From: Callorhinchus milii
Lineage: Eukaryota
DNA: 64,000 nucleotides
Assembly: GCF_018977255.1 (NCBI RefSeq)
Contig: NW_024704742.1
Location: forward strand, 136,464,001 to 136,528,000
Direction: 5' to 3'
In this document: positions 19,560 to 34,633 of the stretch, one piece after another
How positions within the stretch are numbered: the stretch's first letter is position 1
Layout of the letters: every line of letters starts with the position of its first letter
Position numbers and translations under genes: made by a program
The notes under the pieces: model-generated
The model's input: only the letters and a program-made list of their open reading frames with translations
Databases searched by the model: none
What the model was told of the DNA's origin: nothing

Positions 19560-19892
19560 GTGGAGTCCTGTAGCTCAGTGGTTAGAGCACTCGCTTTGCA
19601 AGTGAGAGACCTGAGTTCAATCCCAGGCAGAGGGCGAAACCTTGGGCAAGTTTCCTTACTCCACACAGAGCCTAATAATAATAATAATAATCCCTCCAAA
19701 AACCAAAAACAATAATAAATTGGTCATTTTCAATCCACGACTGTTTGTGGGACATTGCTGTGCGCAATCGGCTGCCGCGTTCGCCCACAAGAATATACAG
19801 TCAACTCACTTTACAGTGTGTTCTGTGAAGCGCTTTGGGACGTCCTCCCGACGTGAAAAGCGCTATATCAAATGCAAGGATTATTATTATTA
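19560..19892 (+). mobile_element. Young tRNA-Deu SINE, short variant, full length
   Basis: Same head, body and tail as 6193-6521. Confidence 0.9.
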
Positions 19893-20222
19893 AATTACAT
19901 TTGTACAGCGCCTTTCACGTCAGGAGCAGCTGGGTTCCCACGTACTGCTAGATAAGCTGGTTTCCAGTGGAGTAAGGAAACGCCAGCGTAGATCATGGTC
20001 AGTTTCTGTGCTGTATATTCTATGCAATTCTATGTTCGCCCAGAAATTGAACCGGGGACCTCTCGCTTGCAAGGCAAGTGCACTACACTACAGGATTCAT
20101 GATTCAGGATTCAAGTCCAATACACTACAGGGTTCACAAACACTCTGCGGGGACTCCGGGTCCTATTCCGGGCGTGAAAAGCGCTATATCAAATGCAAGG
20201 ATTATTATTATTATTATTATTT

Positions 20223-20307
20223 GGTCTCAGACATCTGTCAGCACTCATTCCATCATTAATGTCCACTCTGGAACTCGGATTGCGCAGTGAACTAGTCATC
20301 ATTGACC
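20223..20307 (-). ncRNA. U91 / mgU4-8 box C/D domain (3' domain of the scaRNA), guide for 2'-O-methylation of U4 C8
   Basis: C box ATGATGA (20296-20302), D' CCGA (20275-20278), C'-like TGATGG, D box CTGA (20227-20230), terminal stem GGTC/GACC. 10-nt complementarity to U4 UUGCGCAGUG; the 5th nt upstream of D' pairs with C8. Confidence 0.92.
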
Positions 20308-20681
20308 GGGTTTAGAGACAGACTCCTGGTTCGGGAAAGCGATGGGTGGCTGTTCCAAGACCTTATCTTAATCTTAAGAAGAAAAAGAGAAGGGGAATGA
20401 AGCAAATGTATATTTTTTTGGGGGGGAGGGAGGGAGGGAGCGGACGGGGAAAGCAAATTTAAAGAAGCACAGAGAAAAGGCGTTGTATCAAATGCAAGGA
20501 CTATTATTATTATTATTATTCGGGGTGAAGCAGGACAAATCCCCTTTAAATTTGCGGGGGGTGTGGGGGCGTCGTGTCCCCCTTTATAAATTTGCTTCGG
20601 CCCATCTTAAAAGGGTGAAACTTGAGGAGAAAAAATAGAGAAACGAAGAGGGCCGCGGCTTTTTCTGAGGTAAATTGAGCG

Positions 20682-20768
20682 CATCCATCGCCGGAGAAGG
20701 TTCTAATCACTTCGGGGGCTCTCGCCCCCGATCATATAAGGAAAATCCTGACGCTCACCTGGTGGATG
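20682..20768 (-). ncRNA. mgU12-22 C/D-like domain (5' domain of the scaRNA), guide for 2'-O-methylation of U12 G22
   Basis: Guide ATTTTCCTTA (20737-20746) is complementary to U12 UAAGGAAAAU. D' ATGA at 20732-20735 places +5 on G22. It is followed by an 8-bp hairpin with a GAGA tetraloop (20712-20731) and C'-like GTGATTA (20704-20710). CATCCA/TGGATG bracket the domain. C and D boxes are degenerate. Confidence 0.82.
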
Positions 20769-21292
20769 TGTGTGTGAGTGTGTGTGGGGGTGTGGGGCTG
20801 AAGAAACGGTATTAAATAAACTCACTGAGGACGCACAAAGGCCTCACCACACAGCCCGGACACGAGCCGCCATCGCCTTCCCGCCCCTTCCGAAGCCGCT
20901 CTCCAGCCGAGAAGCTTCCACGCCGCTCAACCTAACCCGCTCGGCTTGTCCCGCCCTCACGCCGCGCGCTCGCTCGCTCGGGCGCCGCCGATTGGACGGT
21001 CTCCCGCCGGCTCTGGCGTTCGTATGGACGCGCCGGGCCGTCAATCATCGTGCGTCACCACGTCTCGCGGGAGCAGCAGGCGTAAGGCGTAAGGCGACAA
21101 CCGAGCGTGATGCACGCGGTCCCCCCGCCTCCCCGCTGCTTTCCCGCTCTTCCATTGGCCAAGCGCGTGTCAATCGTCGCCGCCTCGCTTTCTGATTGGC
21201 TTCCGCTGGGCTGTGGGCGGGGCGCTTGGGGGCAGTGAGTTGGTGCTGTGAGTGACCTTTGGGTCTGTGGCAGTGGTTGTGAGTCTGTGATG

Positions 21293-34633
<13,341 letters not shown>

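Follow-up and report, generated by a model that had tools for sequence, protein, structure and literature searches.

A predicted scaRNA17 (mgU12-22/U4-8) ortholog head-to-head with acaa2 in the elephant shark Callorhinchus milii

Introduction

Human SCARNA17, or mgU12-22/U4-8, is a 421-nt RNA whose host is SNHG22 and whose 5′ and 3′ parts are represented in Rfam by RF00492 and RF00283, respectively. It has been described as a capped Pol II transcript that resides in Cajal bodies, is assembled into a fibrillarin RNP, and guides the formation of Gm22 and Cm8 (PMC4041459, PMC2811027, PMC7960923). Table 1 of PMC7960923 assigns Gm22 of U12 and Cm8 of U4 to this RNA, and methylation at G22 of U12 is reported to be complete in human cells and to disappear once scaRNPs are no longer in Cajal bodies (PMC8336889). 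Part of the human RNA is processed to free mgU4-8 (PMC5612246, PMC7648615); PMC2811027, PMC12150615, and PMC3349704 provide the background on mechanism and processing. The C and D boxes of the 5′ domain are described as non-canonical, and the 3′ loop of mgU4-8 has been proposed to form an 11-bp pairing with nt 30-40 of SNORD16 in regRNP17, a SNORD16-blocking role (both PMC5612246).

The human gene, as U91, is listed together with ACAA2 as bidirectional pair I414, without a ZNF143 site (PMC3082894); in the published coordinates, the start of MYO5B is about 9 kb past SCARNA17. Jorjani et al. 2016 rated the conservation of SCARNA17 as "Therians" (PMC4914119). In the alignment of Marnef et al. 2014 (Fig. 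S5, PMC4041459), the U12 domain is present in 7 of the 10 rows, all of them therian. A chicken survey predicted two U4-C8 guides, both of which are intronic (PMC2653536 Table 1).

Locus and gene order

The window, that is, the whole stretch of 64,000 nt analyzed, is contig NW_024704742.1:136,464,001-136,528,000 (plus strand) of the Callorhinchus milii assembly GCF_018977255.1, and genome-wide searches covered 991.5 Mb. The predicted scaRNA17 gene lies at 20222-20902 on the minus strand and spans about 670-680 nt; its 3′ end is set by an Rfam match, and its 5′ end is approximate (about 20883 to 20902). To its right, acaa2, which encodes mitochondrial 3-ketoacyl-CoA thiolase, occupies 21290-34630 on the plus strand, with the first coding exon at 21290-21309 and later exons from 25307 to about 34630. 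Pfam recognized plus-strand thiolase exons at 25310, 27187, 28876, and 29649, and both of the exons tried had human mitochondrial 3-ketoacyl-CoA thiolase (4c2j) as their best PDB match. The protein showed its top identity, 98%, with the Callorhinchus milii "3-ketoacyl-CoA thiolase, mitochondrial", followed by rays at 77-81% (13 matches), and tblastn with that C. milii thiolase gave nine segments from 25307 to 34630 in addition to the first exon at 21290-21309.

To the left, myo5b enters the window on the plus strand with its last two coding exons at 484-1331 and a stop at 1331. These C-terminal exons were read from ORF translations, and we take them to be those of myo5b from their position and their likeness to the myosin V tail. 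Immediately outside the window, on its left, plus-strand exons encode a myosin V DIL domain, and their best PDB match was myosin-Vb, with 93.6 bits versus 78.9 for Va and 53.2 for Vc. The gene order is thus myo5b (plus), scaRNA17 (minus), and acaa2 (plus), with scaRNA17 and acaa2 head-to-head. As in human, scaRNA17 is an intergenic unit head-to-head with acaa2 and beside myo5b, so that the divergent arrangement claimed by an earlier sequence-only reading of this DNA agrees with both the gene order and the published pair I414 (PMC3082894).

More than 15 near-identical thiolase pieces, many of which share the same E-value, are found on C1 (about 32.0-37.8 Mb), C2, C3, C4, C9, C43, and C1473. They correspond to positions 158-208 of PF00108, in most cases accompanied by positions 209-246 at a distance of about 0.8 kb, and look like a fragment multiplied by a mobile element or by segmental duplications.

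Guide sequences and target snRNAs

In box C/D RNAs, the target is the base paired to the fifth nucleotide upstream of the D or D′ box. The genome yielded a single U12 match (L001) and eight U4 matches, three of them full-length (L002-L004). On the minus strand, 20746-20737 is an exact complement of nt 19-28 of this sole U12, and 20289-20280 is an exact complement of U4 nt 5-14 in all three full-length genes; counting one G-U pair, each guide helix is 11 bp long (U12 nt 18-28 and U4 nt 5-15). After one spacer base, the U12 guide is followed by the box AUGA (20735-20732) and the U4 guide by CCGA (20278-20275), and the fifth base upstream of the box faces U12 G22 and U4 C8, respectively. The sequence-only reading had proposed two minus-strand domains of about 85 nt, each with a 10-nt antisense element and a D′-type box, which were complementary to U12 nt 19-28 and U4 nt 5-14 and directed to the targets of human SCARNA17. 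Both domains were found, at 87 nt each, their guides proved exact against the U12 and U4 genes of C. milii itself, and the D+5 register leads to the human targets G22 and C8 (PMC7960923 Table 1).

Bare complementarity of this length is common, as sites of at least 10 nt number 30 for U12 (16 of which are one repeated 11-mer) and 14 for U4 in the window; an antisense match alone was therefore rejected as evidence. When a box (NUGA or CNGA) was required one base downstream of the guide, just these two sites were found on both strands of the 64 kb. Among 20000 dinucleotide shuffles of 20222-20902, the U12 guide with its box appeared in 77, the U4 guide with its box in 43, and both in none.

A perfect 11-nt complement to U12 nt 16-26, within the branch-point-pairing region, is carried by a repeat in the window (5343, 6284, 8431, 9750, 19651, 19980, and 10 more sites) and is followed by no D box. 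Where checked, this repeat adjoins tRNA-like heads, as at 19571-19660, and the complementarity is probably a coincidence. Two loci (L005 and L006, from about 1501) are chimeric retrocopies in which U4 5′ halves are fused to the tRNA-like head of a common SINE.

We consider it highly probable that this locus is a working elephant-shark ortholog of scaRNA17, a capped Pol II RNA that would guide methylation of U12 G22 and U4 C8. At the level of sequence, the RF00283 match, the conserved blocks and kink-turn of the 5′ domain, the complementarity of the guides, and the gene order all speak for its orthology to human SCARNA17. The gene was not assigned to RF00492, and orthology rests on the domains, the guides, the kink-turn geometry, and synteny. 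Counted against this explanation are the null result with RF00492, the CCGA D′ box, an unbridged repeat in the linker, an uninformative overall fold, the chance-level frequency of the guide pattern without its stem, and the lack of a TATA box, each of which is taken up below.

The 3′ domain

The 3′ domain (20308-20222, minus strand, 87 nt) is a canonical box C/D guide of the mgU4-8/U91 type. Its predicted terminal stem (20307-20304/20226-20223) encloses, in order, a C box (20302-20296), the U4 antisense element (20289-20280, with C8 as predicted target), the CCGA D′ box (20278-20275), a C′ box (20256-20250), an internal CUGA (20241-20238), and a D box (20230-20227). RF00283 matches 20308-20222 on the minus strand with 56.9 bits against a gathering threshold of 40, over positions 1-83 of the 83 in the model, and this is its single match in the entire genome. 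A comparison of the window with all Rfam families gave nine matches over the cut-off, RF00283 and eight tRNA-like matches that are presumably heads of tRNA-derived SINEs. The U91 covariance model proposed as a check by the sequence-only reading therefore returned what that reading had expected on the minus strand. Rfam names RF00283 "SCARNA18", yet in HGNC usage SCARNA18 is the H/ACA RNA U109 (Jorjani supplement, PMC4914119); the RF00283 consensus agrees by eye with the 3′ domain of human mgU12-22/U4-8 (PMC4041459 Fig. S5).

Fourteen sequencing runs were listed for this stretch, 12 of which contained part of it and four of which were compared; the kinds of the runs were guessed, and none is on record as RNA. 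The CCGA at 20278-20275 showed no variant letter in any of the four runs compared. At 20259 and 20604, both outside the boxes and guides, the letter differs from the window in three of these four runs.

In our judgment it is unlikely that the gene is a true ortholog that functions only in part, in which the U12 domain works but the CCGA D′ box impairs the U4 domain (or the other way round) and another guide fills in for the missing methylation. In favor of such partial function, D′ is CUGA in all 10 published mgU4-8 rows (PMC4041459 Fig. S5), two further guides for U4 C8, both intronic, have been predicted in chicken (PMC2653536 Table 1), and retroelement tails lie within and against the gene. 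However, the 3′ domain retains its guide, its C, D, and C′ boxes, and its terminal stem, and it is the sole RF00283 match in the genome. Moreover, degenerate D′ boxes are common, and the conserved D′ box of the 5′ domain is itself AUGA.

Promoter, transcript, and linker

About 390 bases separate the RNA from the acaa2 start codon, and this interval (20903-21289) is a candidate CpG-island promoter region common to scaRNA17 (minus) and acaa2 (plus). The GC content at 20800-21200 is 0.65-0.67, with a CpG observed/expected ratio of 1.31-1.33 versus 0.50 for the window. A scan with consensus motifs, matches to which do not amount to function, placed CCAAT boxes at 20995, 21158, and 21199, GC boxes at 20956 and 21215, and ETS-, CRE-, and TCTCGCG-type motifs in 20903-21289. 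No TATA or Staf/ZNF143 consensus, in the forms used for the scan, was found upstream of the inferred start. An AT-rich segment at about 20820-20810 was rejected as a promoter, as it sits inside the region covered by contigs.

Three runs from two studies (X1, X2, and X4), guessed to be RNA, gave unstranded contigs at this locus: 20241-20492 and 20529-20876 in X1; 20261-20430, 20529-20796, and 20767-20893 in X2; and 20240-20419 and 20655-20892 in X4. Together they cover both domains and the linker except for a repeat, stop at 20876, 20893, and 20892, and leave 20903-21289 uncovered, an interval that is covered by X9, a run of unlabelled kind that continues through the promoter to 21314. At its end, the X2 sequence carries 23 loose letters, which we take to resemble a sequencing adapter. 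These contigs give a weak hint that a transcript covers both domains and has its 5′ end near 20893. Because of filters and skipped repeats, the missing cover of acaa2 exon 1 in X1, X2, and X4, the gap at 20493-20528, and the contig depths were not used as evidence. A start at 20902 would produce a leader of 143 nt before the C-like box of the 5′ domain, versus 134 nt in human SCARNA17.

The linker between the two domains measures about 370 nt and accounts for the extra length of the shark RNA relative to the human one. It holds an antisense insertion of a retroelement-type 3′ tail that ends in ATT repeats (20476-20523, plus strand), which is 90% like a second tail at 20177-20224 on the plus strand and has 34 other matches in the window; the second tail abuts the 3′ end of the RNA. 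A 14-bp helix with one G-U pair is predicted between the leader (20870-20883) and a linker segment immediately 5′ of the 3′ domain (20332-20345), both on the minus strand. Its arms are 524 nt apart, its predicted mean pair probability is 0.97, and the best helix in 300 shuffles did not exceed 12 bp. The leader/linker duplex was computed at -56.8 versus -32.8 ± 4.3 kcal/mol (0/1000), for windows that were picked after the helix had been seen. In addition, a 12-bp helix (20555-20544/20464-20453, probability 0.77) is predicted to loop out the tail in the linker. The predicted 14-bp helix, which requires sequence up to 20883, favors a single molecule and fits the ends of the contigs. The fold of the whole 681-nt RNA showed no stability beyond that of shuffles (z = -0.19), and whole-RNA folding energy was set aside as uninformative. 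AT-rich near-repeats at 20580-20590 and 20544-20555, TATA-like on the minus strand, also serve as 5′ arms of predicted linker helices.

Another reading, which we regard as quite improbable, is that each domain exists as an RNA of its own: the bidirectional acaa2 promoter would yield the 5′ domain, and the 3′ domain would arise from a second start or through obligatory cleavage of the linker. Pointing in this direction, none of the unstranded contigs from these runs of guessed kind bridges 20493-20528, and a TATA-like stretch lies in the linker near 20590-20580. The published lizard, turtle, and coelacanth rows show a 3′ domain without a 5′ domain (PMC4041459), and free mgU4-8 is processed from part of the human RNA (PMC5612246, PMC7648615). 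However, the break coincides with the repeat that the contig tool skipped, the contigs enter the linker on both sides, and the predicted helices, that is, the 14-bp helix between the leader and 20345-20332 and the 12-bp helix spanning the repeat, would make sense only on one molecule.

The 5′ domain

The 5′ snoRNA-like domain (mgU12-22) comprises the 87 nt at 20768-20682 on the minus strand between the arms of a predicted 6-bp terminal stem (20768-20763/20687-20682). It contains a C-like box (20759-20753), the U12 antisense element (20746-20737, with G22 as predicted target), the AUGA D′ box (20735-20732), an 8-bp stem directly after D′ (20731-20724/20719-20712), a 3-nt bulge (20711-20709) between the stem and C′, a C′ box (20710-20704), and a D-like GCGA (20691-20688) in place of the D box. 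The predicted fold of the domain has a z-score of -2.08, matched by 5 of 200 shuffles, and the 8-bp stem has a predicted pair probability of 0.98 at -18.4 kcal/mol. The succession of D′, the 8-bp stem, the 3-nt bulge, and the GA of C′ is in the register of a kink-turn, a statement about geometry only. A C′/D′ kink-turn was reportedly described for the 5′ domain by Tycowski et al. 2004.

With RF00492, a model of 144 positions with a threshold of 75 bits, no match was obtained at E ≤ 10 in 20100-21300 and none in the genome, so the SCARNA17 model that the sequence-only reading had also named as a check did not bear it out. A permissive Rfam scan of 20100-21300 gave nine matches at E ≤ 10, none of which placed a scaRNA family on the 5′ domain. 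Genome-wide, the pattern of guide, D′, and C′ had 10 matches versus 8 for a control and, at this chance level, was rejected as evidence when taken without the stem. The kink-turn stem was present in one of the 10 matches, the copy in the window (8 bp), and the other nine reached at most 3 bp. The 20 nt at 20746-20727 are unique in the 991.5-Mb genome at no more than one mismatch.

Two blocks of the domain, 20746-20727 (20 nt) and 20716-20704 (13 nt), agree by eye at every base with the opossum sequence in Fig. S5 of PMC4041459. In the same comparison, the third pair of the 8-bp stem is G-C here and A-U in human, both sides having changed, and the human row likewise has GCGA at the marked D box (PMC4041459 Fig. 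S5). Because of the identical blocks, the stem change, and the shared GCGA, all judged by eye, homology of the 5′ domain to the U12 domain of mammalian scaRNA17 is well supported at the sequence level though Rfam misses it, and we infer that the RF00492 model is too narrow. The reading in which only the 3′ domain is genuine, as a U4 guide, and the 5′ "domain" is a chance motif in promoter-proximal GC-rich sequence deserves almost no credence: RF00492 fails, the pattern without stem occurs 10 times versus 8 in the control, and the window repeat holds an 11-nt match to U12 nt 16-26, but 33 bases in two blocks are identical by eye to opossum scaRNA17 (PMC4041459), in the right order and at the orthologous locus, the 20-base block is unique in the genome, and the kink-turn stem is found here alone.

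Proposed mode of action

Under the preferred reading, that of a working scaRNA17 ortholog, and by analogy with the human RNA, Pol II would start in the CpG island shared head-to-head with acaa2 and produce one capped RNA of about 680 nt. On the 5′ domain, whose own C and D boxes are non-canonical, a box C/D RNP may be built on the C′/D′ kink-turn; its guide would pair with U12 nt 18-28, and fibrillarin would 2′-O-methylate G22 in Cajal bodies. The canonical 3′ domain would pair with U4 nt 5-15, leading to methylation of C8, also in Cajal bodies, and this domain might perhaps be released from the RNA in stable form, as happens in human. In the folding model, the 14-bp helix would fasten the leader at the foot of the 3′ domain, and nested helices would loop out the lengthened linker, the retroelement tail included.

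Phylogenetic range and implications

The kind of RNA and its mechanism are already known, and automatic annotation may cover the 3′ domain already. What may be new is the range, in that the two-domain form would extend from therians to jawed vertebrates. Full-text literature searches, which covered listings and abstract openings, returned no shark or chimaera scaRNA17; the scope of these searches lay outside Tycowski et al. 2004, Kehr et al. 2014, and Marz et al. 2011, the last of which is said to be a homology survey of exactly these RNAs. In the portions covered, PMC13736004 and PMC6298559 do not treat scaRNA17. Searches of metagenome contigs with the 3′-domain and 5′-domain patterns gave no matches.

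The sequence-only reading had dated the RNA and its link to acaa2 to the jawed-vertebrate ancestor provided that the DNA came from a cartilaginous fish, as is the case with Callorhinchus milii. By parsimony, the fused gene and its linkage to acaa2 would already have been present in the most recent ancestor shared by all jawed vertebrates. The D′ box of the U12 domain lies 513 nt from the 3′ end in the shark, versus about 259 nt in human, and is therefore beyond a 420-nt window. The two-domain form would have been missed because RF00492 is blind to it and because its U12 domain lies at twice the human distance from the 3′ end. On balance, we lean toward the joint reading that the fused U12/U4 guide and the bidirectional acaa2 promoter are ancestral to jawed vertebrates and have been unreported outside therians.

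If this joint reading is true, several consequences would follow. First, the "Therians" rating would be artefactual, owing to a narrow covariance model and short search windows. Second, in birds, reptiles, coelacanth, and teleosts, the U12 domain would be concealed by a longer linker, or else it would have been lost or relocated. Third, the C′/D′ kink-turn block, the leader of about 140 nt, and the pairing of the leader beside the 3′ domain would become candidate Cajal-body or processing signals of capped C/D scaRNAs, whose route to Cajal bodies is stated to be unclear in PMC4041459. Such a very distant ortholog would be a good footprinting tool for Cajal-body targeting of these RNAs, and it also probes the generality of the SNORD16-blocking role, as the pairing is absent here. 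Finally, the shark gene implies that U12 G22 methylation has long been under selection in the minor spliceosome.

Comparison with known systems

SCARNA2 (mgU2-25/61), the other capped two-domain guide, has the same layout of a snoRNA-like 5′ domain and a canonical 3′ domain. It differs in its targets, U2 G25 and C61, and in its location on another chromosome. A SCARNA2 candidate was found in this genome at L023:1501-1914, which is C20:9442109-9442522 (plus strand), by RF01268 with 57.6 bits versus 48. Its best local alignment with scaRNA17 is at the junction of stem, bulge, and C′, where 14 of 16 bases agree. Published vertebrate copies of SCARNA2 have a GU-rich leader (PMC4041459); in the candidate, the 300 upstream bases are a GA-rich repeat, with a TATA-like word just before the first guide. 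The promoters of scaRNA17 and of the SCARNA2 candidate showed no likeness.

For the pairing with SNORD16, the genome offers two tandem SNORD16 copies (L011 and L012), 875 bases apart at C22:2337772-2338746. With both copies, the longest Watson-Crick pairing was 6 bp, and with G-U pairs 8 bp in another register; the pairing varies by eye among the mammalian rows as well (PMC4041459 Fig. S5).

The nearest published likeness to the shark 3′ domain, by eye, is the coelacanth mgU4-8 row of Marnef et al. 2014 (Fig. S5, PMC4041459). In the lizard, turtle, and coelacanth rows, the roughly 300 nt upstream are AT-rich and lack the U12 guide and the boxes of the 5′ domain (PMC4041459). In contrast, the shark has the 5′ domain, about 370 nt upstream of its 3′ domain.

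Compared to human SCARNA17, the shark RNA is longer (about 680 versus 421 nt), with a retroelement tail in its linker. Unlike in human, the hairpin that links D′ to C′ is a short stem capped by a tetraloop and the D′ box of the 3′ domain is CCGA, and the shark RNA falls below RF00492 detection. Nevertheless, the two share the main features of the system. First, both have two tandem domains in the same order, with the same guides and with U12 G22 and U4 C8 as D+5 targets. Second, the 5′ domains have in common the AUGA D′ box, the stem, the 3-nt bulge, the GAUUA of C′, and non-canonical C and D boxes. Third, in both species the RNA lies head-to-head with ACAA2 and has MYO5B on its other side, with no Staf/ZNF143 site and with a leader of similar length.
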